From an uncultured Terrimonas sp. (GTDB lineage: Bacteria; Bacteroidota; Bacteroidia; Chitinophagales; Chitinophagaceae), in the NCBI GenBank assembly GCA_964528095.1, contig CAZGSG010000029.1:1-28677 (forward strand): a DNA stretch of 28,677 nucleotides. Reading direction: 5' to 3'. Shown one piece after another: positions 7,530 to 15,649 of the stretch; within the stretch, counting starts at the first letter, position 1; each line of letters begins with the position of its first letter. The notes under the pieces were generated by a model. That model had not been told where the DNA came from. It did not search any database and saw nothing but the letters and a program-made list of their open reading frames with translations. The translations under genes were made by a program, and so were the position numbers.

Positions 7530-8987
7530 ATGGCAAAATTAAAATTAACAGGAAAAGAAATAAGAGCGATAGGCTACCCGGAAGGACCGGTGGTAAGCAT
7601 TGCTATGCAGGTGATGGAGAAGAATTATAAACATCACACAAAGGAAGAAGTCATGGAGATATTACAAAGAGTATTGACGGCGCCGGTAGAATATAAAAAT
7701 GATGCCGTGTTAGCGTTGATCGCAGAACAATTAATACCGGAAGAAGAAACGGGAGCTGATATTTCATTGAATCAAAAAGGGATACAGTTCAATGTTTTTG
7801 GGACTGAACATATCGAGGAAGGCGCTATGCACCAGATGTACCAGGCAGCAAAATTGCCGGTAAGTGTAGCCGGCGCATTAATGCCGGATGCTCATTCGGG
7901 GTATGGTTTACCTATTGGAGGCGTATTAGCTACTGAAAATGCAGTGATCCCCTATGGTGTAGGAGTAGATATTGGTTGCCGGATGTGTTTAAGTGTATTT
8001 GATATTGATCCGAAGGAGTTGGTACAAAAAGAAAACTATTTCACCCGGGAATTGAACGAGGCGACATTATTTGGAAGCGGAAGACAATTCGATCATGCAT
8101 CCGATCATGAAGTAATGGAAAGAGAAGAGTTTTATCAACTTCCATTGCTGAAGAACTTACATGGACGTGCATGGAAACAATTGGGCTCCTCCGGATCCGG
8201 TAATCACTTTGTAGAATTTGGTATAGTAGCGATTACTGAAAAGGATGCGGTGTTGGGTATAGAGCCGGGGACTTATTTGGGATTATTATCCCATTCAGGA
8301 TCGAGGGCGCTAGGCGCCAATATTGCGAACCACTATACAAAGATCGCCAAACAAATGAGGCGCTTACCTGGTGAAGCCAATAACCTTGCGTGGTTGACAT
8401 TGGATGAAGAAGCCGGTATTGAATACTGGATGGCCATGAATCTTGCAGGCGACTATGCATCAGCATGTCATCATATCATTCATGCAAAGATCGCAAAGCA
8501 ATTGGGGCGAAAGCCAATCAAGCGGGTAGAGAATCATCACAATTTTGCCTGGAAGGAAAAGATCCAGGTAGAAGGAGGGGTCAGGGAAGTGATCGTACAC
8601 AGGAAAGGCGCTACACCAGCCGGTAAAGATGTGCTCGGTATTATCCCGGGCAGCATGACAGCCGATGGTTTTATCGTGAAAGGGAAAGGCGAAGAGGCTT
8701 CCGTCAATTCTGCCTCACACGGAGCGGGAAGAAAGATGAGCCGGACAGCTGCAAACAAATCGATCACAGAGCATGCTTTAAAAGATGAATTAAAAAAGTA
8801 TGGTGTGAAACTGATCGGTGGTGGCCTTGATGAAGCTCCTTTTGCTTATAAGGATATTGAAATGGTCATGAAGAGTCAGCAAAACCTGGTAGAAGTATTA
8901 GGAAGGTTTACTCCCAGGATCGTAAAAATGGACGGTGCTAAGCATAAAGTGTGGGGGAAGAAAAGTGACCAGGTGGCAGGCGAGTAG
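7530..8987 (+). CDS. rtcB: RtcB RNA 3'-phosphate/5'-OH ligase.
   Basis: 485 aa. The N-terminus MAKLKLTG..IRAIGYPEGP, plus GSGNHF and the His-rich metal-site motifs (HSGSR, NHHNFAW), are typical of RtcB. Confidence 0.85.
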   Translation: MAKLKLTGKEIRAIGYPEGPVVSIAMQVMEKNYKHHTKEEVMEILQRVLTAPVEYKNDAVLALIAEQLIPEEETGADISLNQKGIQFNVFGTEHIEEGAMHQMYQAAKLPVSVAGALMPDAHSGYGLPIGGVLATENAVIPYGVGVDIGCRMCLSVFDIDPKELVQKENYFTRELNEATLFGSGRQFDHASDHEVMEREEFYQLPLLKNLHGRAWKQLGSSGSGNHFVEFGIVAITEKDAVLGIEPGTYLGLLSHSGSRALGANIANHYTKIAKQMRRLPGEANNLAWLTLDEEAGIEYWMAMNLAGDYASACHHIIHAKIAKQLGRKPIKRVENHHNFAWKEKIQVEGGVREVIVHRKGATPAGKDVLGIIPGSMTADGFIVKGKGEEASVNSASHGAGRKMSRTAANKSITEHALKDELKKYGVKLIGGGLDEAPFAYKDIEMVMKSQQNLVEVLGRFTPRIVKMDGAKHKVWGKKSDQVAGE

Positions 8988-9072
8988 CTAAGAGTTAAAA
9001 GAAGAAAGGAGGTTAAAGAGTATTTCTTATGAATATTTTCTTTAGCCTCCTTTCTTCTTTTAACTCTTAGCT
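8988..9072. repeat. Long palindromic intergenic element: tagctaagagttaaaagaagaaaggagg ... cctcctttcttcttttaactcttagcta. It lies between the convergent 3' ends and probably acts as a bidirectional terminator. It is copy 1 of a repeat family.
   Basis: A 28-bp perfect inverted repeat flanks a ~22 nt loop. It shares ctaagag..taaaaga.aaaggaagg.aaaagag with the element at 14177-14328. Confidence 0.65.
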
Positions 9073-9668
9073 AACTGATTGGCTATTTCCCTCAGGTTGG
9101 TGATAATGATCTTATATCTTTTTTCTTCCCGTCGCATACCCCGCTTACCCAATACAAAATAGGCGTACAACATCCATCCTCCATAAACGGTACTGGCTAA
9201 AATAATGTTTTGCGTAGACCAGTTACGAAAGATCTCGATAAAATAAATAACCATAGCAAGATTGAGTGCAATAAAATAGAATGGCATGTTCCATTTTATG
9301 TGTTTTTTGCTGGAAGAATAATAGGCTTCCCATTGTTGCAAATGTTCTGCTGGAGGAAGGGTATCATCTATGTTTTTTAATTTTCTCCATCCTTTGAACA
9401 TAACAAGGCTTTGCACGAGAACTACCAGCACGATCATGACAAGACCGGCATATGTTAAGGAGGAATGGAAATACAGCCGGGCAAAGAAGCCCGAACAGGC
9501 AATGAAAATACCTGTGATCAATAGCAGGATCGCAGCAATGAGTTTTTCCCGCATCAATTTATTTTTTGAACTGGCAGATTGTTTGATCAGCGTGGCTGCA
9601 TCGATCTTGTTTTTTTCAGCAGGATCAGACTGCTGCCATAGATCTTTTATAGCATCAAAGTCTTTCAT
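9060..9668 (-). CDS. Membrane protein, putative anti-sigma factor partner of the upstream ECF sigma.
   Basis: It overlaps the sigma gene by 14 nt. Hydrophobic helices are present (LIAAILLLITGIFIACSGFF, MVIYFIEIF). Confidence 0.5.
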   Translation of the reverse strand: MKDFDAIKDLWQQSDPAEKNKIDAATLIKQSASSKNKLMREKLIAAILLLITGIFIACSGFFARLYFHSSLTYAGLVMIVLVVLVQSLVMFKGWRKLKNIDDTLPPAEHLQQWEAYYSSSKKHIKWNMPFYFIALNLAMVIYFIEIFRNWSTQNIILASTVYGGWMLYAYFVLGKRGMRREEKRYKIIITNLREIANQLAKS

Positions 9669-10158
9669 AACTGTTATATATTTCGCTTAATTGTTTTTTG
9701 ATACGATGGATCTTTACTCGCAGGTTATTTTCGGTTATGCCTGTTATGTCCGCAATCTCATCATAGGGTTTATCTTCAAGTACCAGGGAAATGATAAGCC
9801 TGTCTGTTTCCGCAAGCCGGCTGATGCATTTATACAAAACCTTTACTTCCTGTTCTTTTTGCTGACCATCTTCCGCTATTGCTATCATTTCCGCATCTAT
9901 TTCTGCAAACGATAATTTCTTTTTTCGCAGGTGAGTAAGACAGGTATTTACGGCTATCCGGTAGATCCATGTACTCCATTTTGCATCGCCCCTGAACCGG
10001 GCCATGGCATTCCAGGCTCGCAGAAAAGTTTCCTGAAGCAGGTCTTGCGCAAGCGCCGTGTCGCCCGTATAGCCGAGACAGAGTTTGCCAATGCCTTCAG
10101 CGTATTGATTATACAAAGAAGTGAATTCTTTTTCCTGCTCTTTCATGAATGGCTGCAA
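9655..10158 (-). CDS. ECF-type RNA polymerase sigma-70 factor.
   Basis: Region 2 LLQETFLRAWNAMARFRG...WIYRIAVNTCLTHLRKKK and region 4 DEIADITGITENNLRVKIHRIKKQL. Confidence 0.8.
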   Translation of the reverse strand: MQPFMKEQEKEFTSLYNQYAEGIGKLCLGYTGDTALAQDLLQETFLRAWNAMARFRGDAKWSTWIYRIAVNTCLTHLRKKKLSFAEIDAEMIAIAEDGQQKEQEVKVLYKCISRLAETDRLIISLVLEDKPYDEIADITGITENNLRVKIHRIKKQLSEIYNSYERL

Positions 10159-10174
10159 ATTACCTGAGTACTGT

Positions 10175-11029
10175 TTATTTTAGAAAACTATCTATTTCAT
10201 TATAAAACCAATCTGGCTGATCATACATGATAAAGTGTTTGCTATTGGCAACATGTATCGTTTTATTTTGGAGGTTGCGGTATTGGTGTTGCAATATGCG
10301 ATAGCTGTTGGCTTCGTTTCCATAAAGACTACCCAACACAAGTACGGGCTGGGTGATCTTTTTTATGTTTTGGCGAAGATCTGTAGTAGACATTTCAACA
10401 AGTGTATAACCCAGTGTTTTCCTGTCGCAGGTATAGCCCCAGGTCGCTATTTGCCTGGCACGCAGGGTATCATTTACCTGGAACAGCATTGCTTTTGTAT
10501 TTTGATCGATATAGCCGGAGTCAGGGATATTCTCAAAACTTTTTGCCGTTGCCGCCGCATCATAACGCGGATCGTTTTTTATAGCCCCGGCTGTAACGGT
10601 TGAATCTGCCATGGCAGAAATAAAGGGAACTCCATCTACACAGATCATTTTCCCGAAAAGACCTGGCTCAAGACTGCTTATCCATAAGCTCATAAATGCT
10701 CCCAGGCTGTGCCCGATCAGCATGGGTTTAGTGATTTGTTTTGTTTTTACATAGCGGATTATTTCATCCCGAACGGTTTTTAATACCGGCGTATCAATAG
10801 CGGGTACGCCGGCATAACCTGCTAAAGTGAACACATGGCATTCGTAGCGCTGTTTCAGGTGATCTACCGTTTCTTTCCATACATCGCCGCTGCAACTATA
10901 ACCCGGGATAAGCAAAATGGGTTTGCCTTTACCGGTTACTTCCACTTTAAATGCTGTGAACGGTTGCGCGGATGTTTGCGCTGCGAACAATAGTGTAAAG
11001 GACCACAGGAATAAAAATATCTTCTTCAT
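10175..11029 (-). CDS. Secreted alpha/beta hydrolase (esterase/lipase-like) with nucleophile motif GHSLG.
   Basis: Signal peptide MKKIFLFLWSFTLLFAAQTSAQ and GHSLGAF. Confidence 0.7.
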   Translation of the reverse strand: MKKIFLFLWSFTLLFAAQTSAQPFTAFKVEVTGKGKPILLIPGYSCSGDVWKETVDHLKQRYECHVFTLAGYAGVPAIDTPVLKTVRDEIIRYVKTKQITKPMLIGHSLGAFMSLWISSLEPGLFGKMICVDGVPFISAMADSTVTAGAIKNDPRYDAAATAKSFENIPDSGYIDQNTKAMLFQVNDTLRARQIATWGYTCDRKTLGYTLVEMSTTDLRQNIKKITQPVLVLGSLYGNEANSYRILQHQYRNLQNKTIHVANSKHFIMYDQPDWFYNEIDSFLK

Positions 11030-11206
11030 TGATTACTATTTAATTACTGGCGGAGCAAGAATATGCGTTTGCTTTCTATAGTTATTGGATGCAAAGGCGA
11101 AAGAATTATTACACGAGCACAACTATTTTTTTTTAAAATCTTGTTGTGCTGAGCTGTTTTGGAGTTTCCGGCGGTATAAATAAACTGTAGAACTTATCTT
11201 CGTCTC

Positions 11207-11896
11207 ATGAAAACAATTGGACTGATCGGAGGGCTCACCTGGCTCTCTACCATGGATTATTACCGGCTGTTGAATCAACTGGTAAATGAAAAGTTGGGCG
11301 GGGTGGAATCTGCGAAAATTATTTTATACTCTGTCAATTTTTCGGAAATAAAGACCCTGACAGAGGCCGGTGACTGGGAGACCATTGCTGATATAATTGG
11401 TGATGCGGGTAAAAAACTGGAAGAAGCCGGTGCAGATTGTTTATTGATCGGTGCCAATACTATGCACAAGATTGCAGATATTGTTCAGGCGGCAATAGGT
11501 ATTCCTGTTATTCACATCGCGGAGGAAACCGCTGCTGAAATACAGAAACAACGCTTAAAAAAAGTGGCGTTGTTAGGAACGAAGTATACAATGCAACTTG
11601 ATTTTTACAAGGAGAAATTAAAGAGACAGGGTATTGAGACCATTATCCCGGATGAGAAAGATATTTATTATATCAATGAAGCTATTTATACGGAAATGGG
11701 CAAAGGGATCTTTTTGCCGGAAAGAAAAGCGGGTTTTATTGCTATTATTAATAAACTAATGAAGGAAGGTGCTGAGGGAGTGATCCTCGGGTGTACGGAA
11801 ATTCCGATTCTGCTGAAGCAGGAGGATCTTACAATCCCTGTGTTTGACACTACAAATATTCATGCGAAGGCTGCCGTGCGATTTGCCCTCGCATGA
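11207..11896 (+). CDS. Asp/Glu/hydantoin racemase family protein (aspartate-racemase-like).
   Basis: MKTIGLIGGLTWLSTMDYYRLLN, plus the later GCTEIP cysteine motif. Confidence 0.7.
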   Translation: MKTIGLIGGLTWLSTMDYYRLLNQLVNEKLGGVESAKIILYSVNFSEIKTLTEAGDWETIADIIGDAGKKLEEAGADCLLIGANTMHKIADIVQAAIGIPVIHIAEETAAEIQKQRLKKVALLGTKYTMQLDFYKEKLKRQGIETIIPDEKDIYYINEAIYTEMGKGIFLPERKAGFIAIINKLMKEGAEGVILGCTEIPILLKQEDLTIPVFDTTNIHAKAAVRFALA

Positions 11897-11925
11897 ATAA
11901 ACCCGGAAAGCAGGGCCGTGTTTTC

Positions 11926-12186
11926 TCATAGACTGGCGCGATTTTCATTTCTTGGTAGTACATCATCAGCATAATCCAGTAATTCGAAAAGATCATACAA
12001 TTCTCCGAGGTAAATATCAAAGTCAGCGGGAAACCCGCTTCTTACCTGGATACTCAAATAATCAAAAAATACACTCCGCAGGTGGCGGCTGAACTCTGCG
12101 GGTGGATGTTGAGAAATGAATTGTTCGAATCTTGTAAACAGGGCCTTTTTCAAATCCTTTCTACGGACACGTTTCTTTTTAGGCAT
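11926..12186 (-). CDS. Small hypothetical protein, 86 aa, with a basic N-terminus.
   Basis: ORF track only. Convergent with the racemase gene. Confidence 0.35.
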   Translation of the reverse strand: MPKKKRVRRKDLKKALFTRFEQFISQHPPAEFSRHLRSVFFDYLSIQVRSGFPADFDIYLGELYDLFELLDYADDVLPRNENRASL

Positions 12187-12319
12187 ATAAAAGAGCTAAT
12201 AATACCGGGACTTCCTTACCACTTGTTGAATATCCTTAGCTGTCTTTTTGTATTTGTGGTCCCAATATCTTTGGAAAGACAGCCTCTATCAGCAAAACAT
12301 CCCGTTTCCTGATTAATTT

Positions 12320-12365
12320 GTTTATTTGTAAGGAAATTGTCTACAAATATAAACAAATTGCTAAT
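12320..12365. promoter_or_regulatory. Near-perfect inverted repeat aatttgtttatttgta ... tacaaatataaacaaatt, upstream of the HTH gene. Candidate operator.
   Basis: Read directly. It lies inside the over-extended ORF-track N-terminus. Confidence 0.4.
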
Positions 12366-12398
12366 TTATTTAGACTTTTTTCTATTAATTTTTTTACC

Positions 12399-12794
12399 AT
12401 GACAGTAGTAGACCGGTTATTTAAATACCTGAAATATAAAAACCTGAATGCCCGCAATTTCGAGCAGGCCTGCAAAGTGGCCAATGGCTATCTTAAAAAG
12501 CAACAAAAAGGCAAGGGCTCAATCGGGTCGGATATTATTGAACGCATTCATAAGCAATATTTCGATCTGAATATACTATGGCTATTGTCTGGCAAGGGCG
12601 ATATGCTTGGCGAAGACCCCAATGCGAATAATACAAAAGCGGAAGAGCATGCACCCCTTTATACTACAGAGGAAAAAATAAAGCTATTGTCTGAGCGTAT
12701 CAGTATGCTTGAAGCGGCGCTGGCCGATAAGGAAAAGATCATTGCCCTGCTTGAAGCGGAGATAGTTAATTCAAAATTTAAAAGTAAAAATTAA
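12399..12794 (+). CDS. Putative DNA-binding protein with a coiled-coil C-terminus. Start revised to MTVVDRLFKYL.
   Basis: The ORF track starts at 12318, but that frame covers an AT-rich palindrome. The internal ATG at 12399 is more plausible. The HTH call is weak. Confidence 0.45.
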   Translation: MTVVDRLFKYLKYKNLNARNFEQACKVANGYLKKQQKGKGSIGSDIIERIHKQYFDLNILWLLSGKGDMLGEDPNANNTKAEEHAPLYTTEEKIKLLSERISMLEAALADKEKIIALLEAEIVNSKFKSKN

Positions 12795-12962
12795 AAAATA
12801 GCCTCTGGAGATAGGGACGGTTTTTGAATTCATTGCAATGTACTATCAATAAATCCGATACAATGTATAAGCGGAAAAATGCAATTCCGGGATGCAAGAC
12901 CAGTTTAAGGACATTATTTTTTAATTTTTACTTTTGAATTTTGAATTTTGCATTTACCCCGG

Positions 12963-14147
12963 CTATACTTTTATATAAATCTTCCTCTTATCCATCCAGT
13001 AACAAATGGCCCACATAAAGGTGATCACACAAAGTGCATATAGTAACGAGCCGAGTTTAGGATCGCCGGGTACGTTCACCAATAACTTAGTATAGAGAAA
13101 ATTCCAGGGATTCACTCCATTTCCCAACTTGATCAGTCCAAGTCCCTTTGGTAAAAATGCGCTCAATGCAAAAACGAATAGCGCGTTTTTCCCAAACACG
13201 GTAAAGAATTGACTAAGCCAGCCCCTTGCGTTCTTTATTTCGATCATATAGATCATTGTGGCAATAGTAATAGTGGCCAATCCTGCGGTATATACAGTGA
13301 AAGAGCTTGTCCAGATCTTTTTATTAATAGGGAAAAGCATGTCCCAGCAAAAACCGGTCACGATTAATGCAACACCGGTTATGAACAGACCTGTAAGCAT
13401 AGGGTAGAGATTGGCAGTTGCGGGCGCATTTTCAAGACCAGGCTGTGGTATTCTGCTTTTTTTCTGTATATAATCTCCGATCAGGTAACCAAAAATGACC
13501 TCGGTTATGGCAGGCAGGGTACTCACAAATCCTTCAGGGTCAAATGGCACTCCCTCGCCTTTATACATATGTGCCACACCCAATAATTTTTTATCGATAT
13601 CGGTTCCGAACCAGCCTGCGAGACTATATGGGTCAGCGGGATTTGCAGCATAACATAAGATCCAGTAGACCAGCAAAAGGAGGAGGCCCGCATAAAAAGC
13701 TTTGCGGAGTTTGAGGTAGTAGATGATAACGGAAGCGAAGAAATAACAAAGAGCGATCCGTTGTAAAACGCCTAAGATCCTGACACCGCTCAGCGGATTG
13801 TTTGGATCTGTCCAGGGCCGGAAAACGAGGCTGCCATCCGCCCATTTTACAAAAGGCCACCAATTGAGAAACAGGCCGATCAGGAAAATAAGGGCTGTTC
13901 TTTTAATCACTTTTCGCCAGAAAGCCGCGTCGCCACCTGCTTCCAACCGGGGCATTACAAAAGCCATTGCATTGCCTACAGCAAATAAAAAGAAAGGGAA
14001 AACAAGATCTGTAGGAGTGAGGCCATGCCAGGGAGCGTGTTCCAGCGGCGCATAGATATGTCCCCAGCTACCTGGATTATTTACCAGGATCATGAGGCAG
14101 ACGGTAGCGCCACGAAAAACATCAAGTGAATAGAATCGTTGGTTCAC
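12963..14147 (-). CDS. Polytopic membrane protein, HGSNAT/DUF1624-like acyltransferase family.
   Basis: The N-terminus MNQRFYSLDVFRGATVCLMILVNNPGSWGHIY is characteristic of that family. About 10 TM helices. Confidence 0.55.
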   Translation of the reverse strand: MNQRFYSLDVFRGATVCLMILVNNPGSWGHIYAPLEHAPWHGLTPTDLVFPFFLFAVGNAMAFVMPRLEAGGDAAFWRKVIKRTALIFLIGLFLNWWPFVKWADGSLVFRPWTDPNNPLSGVRILGVLQRIALCYFFASVIIYYLKLRKAFYAGLLLLLVYWILCYAANPADPYSLAGWFGTDIDKKLLGVAHMYKGEGVPFDPEGFVSTLPAITEVIFGYLIGDYIQKKSRIPQPGLENAPATANLYPMLTGLFITGVALIVTGFCWDMLFPINKKIWTSSFTVYTAGLATITIATMIYMIEIKNARGWLSQFFTVFGKNALFVFALSAFLPKGLGLIKLGNGVNPWNFLYTKLLVNVPGDPKLGSLLYALCVITFMWAICYWMDKRKIYIKV

Positions 14148-14176
14148 AAGAAAGTATTTTGGTTGCTAAATGTAGT

Positions 14177-14328
14177 GAATAACTAAGAGGATAAAAGAGA
14201 AAAGAAGGTAAAAGAGTTAGGCCTATCATAACAGAAGTTGCTGCTTAATATGCGAAACATTCGTGGATATACAACCCGAAGAAGGGCTCTCTTCAACCCT
14301 TTTTCTCTTTTATCCTCTTAGTTAATTG
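14177..14328. repeat. Copy 2 of the palindromic element family: arms aactaagaggataaaagagaaaagaaggtaaaagag / ctttttctcttttatcctcttagtt around a ~70 nt loop.
   Basis: A 24-bp perfect plus an imperfect extended inverted repeat. The arm sequence is related to 8988-9072. Confidence 0.6.
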
Positions 14329-14342
14329 TATTATTTTGCAAC

Positions 14343-14924
14343 ATGCCCCAAGAATCATTTTTTGCCCATCCTACCGCTGTGATCGACCCGGGAGCAACGA
14401 TTGGCACCGGAACCAGGATATGGCATTTTTGTCACCTGATGCCTTTAGCTGTTGTCGGTAGCAACTGTATCCTGGGCCAGAATGTATATATAGACAACAA
14501 TGTTGTTATTGGAAATGGGGTGAAGATCCAGAACAATGTATCCGTGTACACAGGAGTGACTATCGAAGATGATGTATTTCTTGGCCCATCAATGGTCTTT
14601 ACAAATGTGATCAATCCGCGCAGTTTTATAGAGCGAAAAAATGAATTTAAAAAAACCCTGTTGCGCAAGGGATGCAGTATTGGTGCAAATGCCACACTGC
14701 TTTGCGGAGTTGAGATCGGTTCTTACGCAATGATCGGCGCGGGCACCGTAGTGGTAAGTACTGTACCTGCTTATGGATTGGTGCTGGGTAATCCGGGTCG
14801 CCGGGTGGGCTGGATCAGCGAGGCGGGCAGCACACTTAGCTTCACTATCGACGGTTGGGCAGTATGTGAAATAAGCGGCAAAAAATACCGGCTGGAAAAT
14901 GAAATGGTCTTCCCCGTTTTGTGA
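14343..14924 (+). CDS. Hexapeptide-repeat (left-handed beta-helix) sugar N-acetyltransferase, WbpD/PglD/WxcM-like.
   Basis: Repeated [LIV]-G-x-x-x-x-I motifs across IGTGTRIWHF...IGNGVKIQNNVSVY...IGANATLLCGVEIGSYAMIGAGTVV. Confidence 0.7.
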   Translation: MPQESFFAHPTAVIDPGATIGTGTRIWHFCHLMPLAVVGSNCILGQNVYIDNNVVIGNGVKIQNNVSVYTGVTIEDDVFLGPSMVFTNVINPRSFIERKNEFKKTLLRKGCSIGANATLLCGVEIGSYAMIGAGTVVVSTVPAYGLVLGNPGRRVGWISEAGSTLSFTIDGWAVCEISGKKYRLENEMVFPVL

Positions 14925-15044: not shown

Positions 15045-15151
15045 CAGCCAAATAACTAACAGATCATCAAAATCTTATTGGTCTGATCGTACCGGTCATG
15101 CAAAAAAAACCTGTGACTGAGGTGGCGAAGCCATCTAAAAATTTATCGGGG

Positions 15152-15649
15152 ATGCGAAAGTGGTTAGCTGTTTATAGCCGGCCGCGATGGGAAAAAAAGG
15201 TAAACCAGCTTCTGGCAGAAAAGGGTTTTGAAAGCTATTGTCCCCTAAACAAAATCCGAAGGAAATGGAGTGATCGGGTGAAGCTGGTAGAAGAACCTCT
15301 TTTTAAGTCCTATATATTTGTCAAAGTGACTGAAGAAGACCGGACTGCCGTTCGCATGACGCCTGGTGTAGTGAATTTTGTATACTGGGACGGTAAGCCG
15401 GCAGTGATCAAAGAAAAGGAAATCAATGCGATCCGGCGTTTCTTGAATGAATATGAGAACGTAGCAGTAGAGTCTCTCGATCTGCGTCTTCGTCAGCGGG
15501 TTAAAATAACTACAGGTCCATTGATGGACCAGGAAGGCGAAGTGTTGAGTGTACGGCACAAAACAGTGAAAGTAGCTATTGATAGTCTGGGATATGTGCT
15601 GGTGGCACATATTGATAGAAGTAGATTAACTTCGGCGCGCCCTCATTGA
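15152..15649 (+). CDS. upxY: UpxY-family (NusG-like) transcription antiterminator for polysaccharide loci.
   Basis: MRKWLAVYSRPRWEKKV...FESYCP...LFKSYIFVKV are typical NusG-N/KOW features. The start was chosen at the internal ATG, not the ORF-track 15098. Confidence 0.75.
   Translation: MRKWLAVYSRPRWEKKVNQLLAEKGFESYCPLNKIRRKWSDRVKLVEEPLFKSYIFVKVTEEDRTAVRMTPGVVNFVYWDGKPAVIKEKEINAIRRFLNEYENVAVESLDLRLRQRVKITTGPLMDQEGEVLSVRHKTVKVAIDSLGYVLVAHIDRSRLTSARPH

Follow-up and report, generated by a model that had tools for sequence, protein, structure and literature searches.

Two long palindromes lie between genes in a stretch of 28,677 nucleotides from an uncultured Terrimonas sp. (assembly GCA_964528095.1, complete contig CAZGSG010000029.1; the whole stretch is called the window here), and both were found to be copies of one dispersed repeat built from a purine-rich module with CTAAGAG in its conserved head. 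This CTAAGAG family is modular and specific to Chitinophagaceae, and its behaviour is probably that of a mobile or amplifiable element that is not autonomous, of the kind represented by miniature inverted-repeat transposable elements (MITEs), repetitive extragenic palindromes and bacterial interspersed mosaic elements (REP/BIME) or the Correia elements. In other genomes the arms of the family enclose a small gene of the GxxExxY nuclease type, and this association is solid.

Copy 1 spans 89 nt (8985-9073), and its 35-nt arms (8985-9019 and 9039-9073) are 97% complementary, the first 28 nt, which include the terminal TAG/CTA, being perfectly paired as the initial annotation had described. The RNA fold of copy 1 has an energy of -62.7 kcal/mol (z = -10.8), and none of 200 shuffled sequences was as stable. 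Copy 2 spans 152 nt (14180-14331, fold z = -7.4) and has the 24-nt perfect arms noticed earlier (14180-14203 with 14301-14324, 97 nt between them), from which imperfect pairing extends to about 14217/14290. As the arms are almost pure A and G, composition was tested as the cause of their likeness. A one-gap alignment of the arms of copies 1 and 2 matches them at 31 of 37 positions (Smith-Waterman score 39), a score reached by none of 5000 shuffles and well above the best of 148 equally purine-rich 38-mers from 0.85 Mb of related DNA (26). The motif that had been read as common to both copies is thus a real relationship and not an effect of composition.

The family extends well beyond these two copies, as the initial annotation had supposed. 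A scan with the pattern CTAAGAGN{1,2}TAAAAGARRAAA over one genome per species (185,579 species) gave at least 118 loci; among the matches listed, about 90 were from Chitinophagaceae, Chitinophagales or unclassified Bacteroidota metagenome-assembled genomes (MAGs), including Ferruginibacter, Flavisolibacter and Chitinophaga, and the others were scattered chance matches in coding DNA. The same pattern in viral contigs, used as a noise control, gave 14 matches, none with family features. An nhmmer profile built from 77 arms and searched against 1.66 Mb recovered from the window its four arms and no others (E = 3e-4 to 3e-3); among the pattern loci, 105 gave a total of 157 arms. The orthologous sites of both window copies are empty in relatives, and in the nearest named relative, GCA_016787085.1, the family is present at another locus (L167) and absent at the site of copy 2 (L002). 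We found no description of the CTAAGAG repeat in the literature, nor of any such small dispersed palindromes in Chitinophagaceae. Two contigs labelled as a Citrobacter freundii MAG (QFQQ01; L147 and L192) carry family-type arms, L192 also having palindromes of a second, AAAAGT type, and these are probably Chitinophagaceae contigs mis-binned into the Citrobacter MAG.

The unit of the family is a module of about 35 nt, TWRG-CTAAGAG-N1-2-TAAAAGAGAAAA-GAG-AAAGAG, composed of about four degenerate purine repeats of 8-9 nt. Purines make up about 90% of each arm across some 30 nt, so that a single arm cannot pair with itself and a hairpin arises only from an inverted doublet. Conservation extends beyond the positions set by the search pattern to G at -1 (116 of 137 arms), T at -4 (96 of 137) and the distal GAG..AAAGAG. 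The modules occur singly, in tandem arrays and as inverted pairs; among neighbouring arms, 29 pairs have their heads outward, none has them inward and 19 are in direct orientation. One locus (L181) has a single purine-rich (AG) arm followed by about ten pyrimidine-rich (CT) units, and two others (L125 and L190) have whole hairpins in tandem. In the partner arms, which had not been selected by the pattern, the head is near invariant, with CTCTTAG in 26 of 29. Other loci yielded 36 short hairpins (67-112 nt), of which 35 come from family genomes and the remaining one, in an alphaproteobacterium (L097), is a chance match. In the hairpin comparison copy 1 had much the strongest fold, at -54.5 kcal/mol where values of -20 to -40 are typical. 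The elements matched no Rfam family, giving only sub-threshold matches to generic miRNA-precursor hairpins.

The element keeps close to gene boundaries. By simple calls of open reading frames (ORFs), 55 element clusters lie between tandem genes, 15 between convergent and 9 between divergent genes, 18 at a contig edge and 6 inside an ORF, these last with arms that are not family-like. The 3'-end location proposed at first is therefore not a rule of the family; it holds for copy 1, which separates convergent 3' ends, and fails for copy 2. As the HGSNAT-like gene is read from the minus strand, copy 2 separates the starts of two divergent genes. A long ORF ends within -30 to +45 of the head in 56 of 137 arms, and in 43 of these 56 the stop codon is inside the head (offsets -5 to +9), most commonly as TAA or TAG at -4 or -3, as the TAA of CTAAGAG at +1 or as the TAA of TTAAAAG at +8 or +9. 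With the common 2-nt spacer, the stop codons of the head cover all three reading frames. The termini of GTAG REPs are known to supply TAG stops to flanking ORFs (PMC3733652), so stop donation is not unique to the CTAAGAG family.

The palindrome of copy 1 opens with the TAG stop of rtcB (8985-8987), and the C-terminus of RtcB in the window (...AGE*) is native, conserved as in relatives. From the other side, the minus-strand ORF 9060-9668 runs 13-15 nt into the right arm, its last five codons and TAA stop (...LAKS*) lying within the arm, and it is convergent with rtcB (7530-8987, plus strand, identified by Pfam). This ORF overlaps a gene for an extracytoplasmic function (ECF) sigma factor and probably encodes the membrane partner of that factor; an anti-sigma role of its product is plausible. 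ORF 9060-9668 belongs to a three-gene minus-strand block (9060-11029) that encodes the membrane protein, the ECF sigma factor and an alpha/beta hydrolase, and copy 1 stands at one junction of the block. The block is absent in relatives where rtcB directly precedes a racemase gene (L040, L046 and one Joint Genome Institute contig). Searches for identical copies of the RtcB and racemase proteins gave no match.

At the site of copy 2, the relatives L002 and L004 have both of the promoter-like boxes that flank it in the window and lack the element itself. The internal segment of copy 2 (14218-14289) has no relative among the fetched loci and no similarity to the units that carry GxxExxY genes; its only match is a Logan contig from the same genome (L001), which begins within the left arm of copy 2.

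Further observations concern a candidate protein-coding partner. In one locus (L141) a 131-aa GxxExxY ORF (PF13366, 109.6 bits; TIGR04256, 113.8 bits) is located between an AG arm and a CT arm with their heads outward, and close homologues (71-78% identical) lie between arms in four further loci (L108, L131, L090 and L109), some of them decayed by an internal stop, a frameshift or a lost ATG. As an unbiased test, GxxExxY homologues were fetched by protein identity. All 25 loci obtained in this way had family arms within about 100 nt of the gene, and they fall into four genomic sites (Table 1); five loci fetched by the pattern, representing three of the same four sites, have the same arrangement. 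The identities among the GxxExxY proteins do not track the genomic site. Site C also occurs without the gene, as a bare 120-nt hairpin in L123 and as a single arm in L088. The presence of this GxxExxY subfamily among the arms at four sites suggests a small element that carries a nuclease, with the short palindromes as its MITE-like relatives devoid of a gene, and the gene may be an autonomous partner, cargo or a hairpin-homing gene.

PF13366 is listed as being of unknown function (PMC3424549), and mention of GxxExxY was found in just three papers. The structure model of the protein was mediocre (predicted local distance difference test score 64.8) and too weak for fold assignment; Foldseek against PDB gave no significant match (best Cas4 SSO0001, E = 0.23), and no sequence relative is present in PDB.

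Table 1. Features of the two CTAAGAG copies and neighbouring genes in the window, and genomic sites at which GxxExxY genes lie among family arms (L numbers denote fetched loci)
Feature	Position or loci	Strand	Remarks
Copy 1, AG (purine-rich) 5' arm, head TAG-CTAAGAG	8985..9023	+	pairing extendable to 36/39 positions; nhmmer arm-profile match 8986-9022, E = 0.0027 (1.66 Mb searched)
Copy 1, apical loop	9024..9034	.	RNA fold and pairing extension
Copy 1, CT (pyrimidine-rich) 3' arm, end CTCTTAG-CTA	9035..9073	+	nhmmer match 9074-9037, minus strand, E = 0.0024
Copy 1, terminator-like core, alike on both strands	9001..9057	.	A-rich AAAGAAGAAA, stem GGAGG...CCTCC, T-rich TTTCTTCTTTT; read from sequence, function putative
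ECF sigma factor gene	9655-10158	-	Pfam
HGSNAT/DUF5009-like acyltransferase gene	12963-14147	-	GTG start and N-terminus at 14147; Pfam match to residues 4-236
Leader of HGSNAT-like gene with promoter-like box TACATTTA	14148..14179	-	outside left head of copy 2; motif kept in L002 and L004; promoter role putative
Copy 2, AG arm, head TAA-CTAAGAGG	14180..14217	+	nhmmer match 14182-14218, E = 0.00027
Copy 2, internal segment	14218..14289	.	unique sequence
Copy 2, CT arm, end CCTCTTAG-TTA	14290..14331	+	nhmmer match 14324-14290, minus strand, E = 0.0015
Box TATTTTGC directly upstream of hexapeptide-transferase ATG (14343)	14332..14342	+	outside right head of copy 2; kept in L002 and L004; role putative
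Hexapeptide transferase gene	14343-14924	+	Pfam
UpxY-like NusG gene	15098-15649	+	Pfam
Site A, PaaZ-like / enoyl-CoA hydratase	L218-L227 (also L090, L109)		arm-gene-arm
Site B, after SDR (short-chain dehydrogenase/reductase) gene	L228-L233 (also L108, L131)		arm-gene-arm
Site C, PheS / arginase-like	L234-L237, L141		arm-gene-arm
Site C, PheS / arginase-like	L238		hairpin-gene-hairpin; gene stop within AG head
Site D, LysS-like / SDR	L239-L242		hairpin-gene-CT-like arm

Taken together, two polypurine modules of about 35 nt, inverted with their heads outward, form the long hairpin, and the element fills the intergenic space, its heads directly adjoining stop codons or start regions and providing a three-frame translation stop. 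Structure, membership of the family, distribution, the geometry at gene boundaries and the association with GxxExxY are observed, whereas mobility, terminator activity and any part played by the nuclease are inferred. Copy 2 would have inserted where two divergent genes have their core promoters, on either side of it, and the GxxExxY PD-(D/E)XK gene would be the best candidate for an autonomous or co-mobile partner.

Several results weigh against mobility or against parts of this proposal. No target-site duplication, which the initial annotation had suggested looking for, was found at the flanks of 29 hairpins, and the flanks only continue the palindromic TWRG/CYWA consensus; the TA beside both window copies is self-complementary and therefore uninformative on this point. 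No recognised transposase was present among 565 neighbouring ORFs, whose clustering gave housekeeping orthologues only. No arm was detected by blastn-short or nhmmer in 0.82 Mb of orthologous metagenome loci (L002-L085), so the family is widespread but patchy. The GxxExxY protein is uncharacterised, and the architecture of arms and gene differs between the sites. There is also no T-run (U-run) after the full hairpin. Arm identity within an element (0.78) is no higher than between genomes (0.79; 27 hairpins), the RNAalifold covariation term is about 0 with 15 consistent outer pairs, and there is no strand bias, the sense fold being stronger in 9 of 18 co-directional contexts in a test of G-U against A-C pairs. 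Because the arm identities are equal, covariation is about zero and sense and antisense folds are alike, the hairpin is a by-product of two sequence-conserved modules and not a co-varying RNA structure. Finally, 18 orthologous arm pairs keep the same offset from the gene in different species, with arms 0.83 identical against about 0.52 at third codon positions, in a comparison that is partly biased, its loci having been chosen by the search pattern, and that includes partner arms not selected by it. The flanking genes of these pairs are 70-91% identical at the protein level. The difference between 0.83 and 0.52 points to sequence constraint with long retention, or to homogenisation, and not to simple selfish turnover. 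Pure retention is in turn countered by the empty window sites in relatives, by the absence there of the block 9060-11029 and by the local expansion of arrays.

The constraint on the arms could also mean that they are sequence-specific functional sites and not mobile DNA, kept at gene boundaries by purifying selection, for instance the site of a protein or RNA-binding factor or a terminator cassette of the clade, with the hairpin as a by-product of two sites set back to back. This would account for the orthologous arms that outlast third codon positions at a kept gene offset, for the equal identities within and between elements, for the near-invariant head even in arms not selected by the pattern and for the lack of both target-site duplications and a transposase. 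It accounts poorly for copies missing at orthologous sites of close relatives, for tandem arrays of up to about ten units, for copies in every intergenic context including divergent promoters and for the same arms beside a GxxExxY gene at four different sites; moreover, we know of no candidate binding factor for the CTAAGAG module. We consider functional sites of this kind unlikely, and a mobile or amplifiable repeat remains our preferred reading.

The position of copy 1 raises the question of transcription termination. A hairpin stands downstream of rtcB in almost every relative, and it is usually canonical, with a G+C-rich stem and a T-run, as in L014, L025, L030-L032 and L034. In L018/L020, L038 and L067 a long palindrome of another sequence family lies 3' of rtcB, so the rtcB stop region has repeatedly been occupied by different palindromic repeats. 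These palindromes, of the ATTGAATATTGA or AAAAGT type, are at 9613-9697 in L018, 12546-12630 in L020, 12218-12368 in L038 and 12355-12481 in L067, and the last rtcB codons are altered by the palindrome in L067 and L038. Copy 1 takes the place of the canonical terminators of the relatives, and no other terminator-like site is present there in the window. On both strands its inner part reads as an A-rich tract, a GGAGG stem-loop CCTCC and then the T-rich tract (Table 1), and the family consensus has the same inner layout, GAG..AAAGAG / CTCTTT..CTC followed by TTTTCTCTTTTA. A transcribed copy would thus form a long A-U-rich hairpin whose inner GGAG stem followed by a UUUUCUCUUUU tract has the layout of a two-way intrinsic terminator. 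Copy 1 would most likely be the 3'-end hairpin shared by rtcB and the convergent membrane-protein/ECF-sigma operon, where it would end transcription, stabilise RNA or be cut by RNase III; judged by its layout, a bidirectional intrinsic terminator role is plausible for this copy only, and its long perfect stem would be a substrate for RNase III. Copy 2 lies upstream of both its neighbours and therefore cannot terminate either, and the terminator role is likewise inapplicable to single arms or arrays.

That the copies are ordinary bidirectional intrinsic terminators which arose in place, and resemble each other by convergent composition, is improbable. The setting of copy 1 between convergent genes where relatives carry terminators, and its symmetrical A-tract, stem and U-rich tract, would fit such an origin. 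The similarity of the arms is however far above composition, copy 2 has a gene start on each side, neither single arms nor tandem arrays can terminate, a consensus terminator scan called neither copy, and the 35-nt consensus with its non-structural GCTAAGAG head recurs in about 90 genomes among the matches listed; family-wide sequence conservation has already largely refuted this origin. We rejected as hardly credible the reading of copy 2 as an inverton controlling a downstream capsule or exopolysaccharide locus, as in Bacteroides: inverted repeats of 24-42 nt around a segment of about 100 nt do immediately precede a polysaccharide locus (with hexapeptide transferase, UpxY-like NusG, Wza and Wzc), but the arms belong to the dispersed family, a reading of both strands of the 72-97-nt spacer showed no TAnnTTTG box, there is no adjacent recombinase gene, the conserved promoter-like boxes are outside the repeats and the orientation is the same in the only independent assembly (L001).

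Several known systems bear on where a mobile or amplifiable CTAAGAG family would belong. Like the REP, BIME and REPIN elements of Proteobacteria, mobilised by REP-associated tyrosine transposases (RAYTs), the family is short and intergenic and occurs singly, as inverted doublets with long hairpins and in tandem clusters; both lack target-site duplications, their termini often give the stop of the flanking ORF, and roles in termination and mRNA stability are proposed for both. REPs, however, are marked at one terminus by a GTAG (or CGTC) tetranucleotide that is conserved (PMC3733652), whereas the CTAAGAG head is TWRG before CTAAGAG, G at -4 is rare, and copy 1 reads GTAG-C and copy 2 ATAA-C. 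A REP unit is itself an imperfect palindrome of 20-40 nt, whereas the CTAAGAG unit is homopurine and unable to fold on itself. No RAYT adjoins CTAAGAG arms among the 565 ORFs, the one RAYT-like ORF (L122) being flanked by a different repeat, and the gene within the arms encodes a PD-(D/E)XK GxxExxY protein instead. The window also holds, at 4330-4400, two small palindromes 21 nt apart, GTAG-AGACGCAATGCCTTGCGTCTC and a near-identical inverted copy ending in CTAC, located between the convergent ORFs 3824-4333 (plus strand) and 4397-5419 (minus strand), with the TAG of each GTAG forming the stop of the flanking ORF. By its sequence this looks like a classical GTAG-tagged REP doublet (REPIN), no further copy of which was found in the fetched loci; the GTAG REP type is not listed for Bacteroidetes (PMC3733652).

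The family resembles MITEs in its terminal inverted repeats (35-39 nt), its small size (89 and 152 nt for the two window copies), its lack of coding capacity and its insertion polymorphism, both window sites being empty in relatives and site C differing between genomes. As for an autonomous element, the GxxExxY gene lies among the same arms at four sites, but it is not a known transposase and its architecture varies. With the Correia elements of Neisseria (Correia repeat enclosed elements and Neisseria miniature insertion sequences, CREE/NEMIS) and other MITEs the family shares long inverted repeats at its termini, a length in the range of about 80-150 bp, intergenic positions near genes, insertion polymorphism between lineages and a long hairpin in the transcript, which in Neisseria is an RNase III substrate. 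The CTAAGAG family differs from them in having no TA or other target-site duplication and no DDE transposase that shares its ends, in arms made of tandem purine repeats of about 8 nt and in the many copies that persist at orthologous sites across species. By definition it is therefore not a REP, and it fails the target-site-duplication test of classical MITEs; the REP- or MITE-like character proposed in the initial annotation stands for the intergenic position, the inverted pairs, the tandem arrays and the absence at orthologous sites of relatives, and does not extend to these defining features.

Other systems are similar in part. BOX elements of Streptococcus pneumoniae are likewise modular and intergenic, with a module that can be repeated in tandem and a stable secondary structure, but they are unrelated in sequence and host clade and have three modules (A, B and C) against one module in two orientations. 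Paired DNA uptake sequences and uptake signal sequences (DUS/USS) of Neisseria and Pasteurellaceae also match a clade-wide consensus independently of each other and form terminator-like hairpins as inverted pairs downstream of genes; the CTAAGAG family differs in that it is confined to intergenic DNA, has a far greater length (35 nt) and, roughly estimated, is much rarer. In the intervening sequences (IVS) of 23S rRNA a small ORF lies inside a long stem. The GxxExxY gene, and a four-helix-bundle-like gene in L116, lie similarly in the loop of a long inverted-repeat stem, though not in rRNA. The CTAAGAG family belongs to a known kind, the small dispersed palindromic repeats, and its pairing with GxxExxY is the feature most deserving of follow-up.

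Repeats of other sequence surround small genes elsewhere. More distant paralogues of GxxExxY have different long inverted repeats on their two sides, 9 of 11 scoring above the 95th percentile of 424 control ORFs. Three such paralogues, in repeats unrelated to CTAAGAG, are at 7052-7599 in L125 (29-nt repeat, 97%, CCCGCAGAAATCGCAGAGATTCGCAG), at 4699-5295 in L077 (39-56-nt repeat, TTGAACCACGGAGACACAG...) and at about 2100-2900 in L093 (28-nt repeat of the GACGCTAATT type). In L009 the HGSNAT gene is likewise preceded by a hairpin, of the TTGAACCACAG type. Those control ORFs whose flanking repeats scored highest are, to judge from a reading of their sequences, putative GIY-YIG, RAYT-like and four-helix-bundle small genes. 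The small genes enclosed by repeats are GIY-YIG-like in L184 (5540-5989, enclosed by a perfect 28-nt CTGTCATGCTGAGGCACGAAGCATCTCC) and L189 (4454-4918), RAYT-like in L122 (2553-3169) and four-helix-bundle (IVS-type)-like in L116 (6672-7105). A second family of long palindromes is present in the window at 12766-12949, with arms AATTCAAAATTTAAAAGTAAAAATTAAAAAATA (33 nt, 97%) around 114 nt of spacer. It is bounded by two stop codons, that of a small ORF (TAA 12792-12794, within the arm) and that of the HGSNAT-like gene. Arms of this AAAAGT type also occur in L067 (directly at the rtcB stop), L139, L192, L038, L114 and L110.

As a bolder and tentative possibility, the palindromes may be the gene-less form of undescribed tiny mobile elements, the autonomous form being a unit of about 0.5 kb in which long inverted repeats enclose a GxxExxY PD-(D/E)XK nuclease gene. 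Chitinophagaceae would then have several parallel systems (AAAAGT, ATTGAATATTGA and GCAGAAATC types), every one with a small nuclease or selfish gene of its own (GxxExxY paralogues, GIY-YIG, four-helix-bundle or RAYT), and these would land precisely on gene boundaries with a three-frame stop and a bidirectional terminator-like hairpin.

Among the remaining features of the window, three direct repeats of about 22 nt (TTATACTG......CTTTACAG) with a spacing of 32-33 nt lie at its left end (38-124). Rfam at gathering thresholds reported only tRNAs in the window, five against three by ARAGORN, those at 2279-2351 and 5915-5977 (the latter at 32 bits, just above threshold) being found by Rfam only.

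In model bacteria, small dispersed palindromes such as REP, BIME, Correia and BOX elements influence how operons are expressed, how mRNA decays and how the genome is rearranged, and Chitinophagaceae are abundant in soil and wastewater. The CTAAGAG family provides a ready marker of gene boundaries in this group and explains breaks in MAG contigs, such as the start of L001 and the many short GxxExxY contigs, and its elements constitute a natural cassette of a three-frame stop and a hairpin. If the link with GxxExxY is causal, it would give the large PF13366/TIGR04256 family its first biological role and would extend the repeat-enzyme partnership of the REP-RAYT type to a different nuclease fold.

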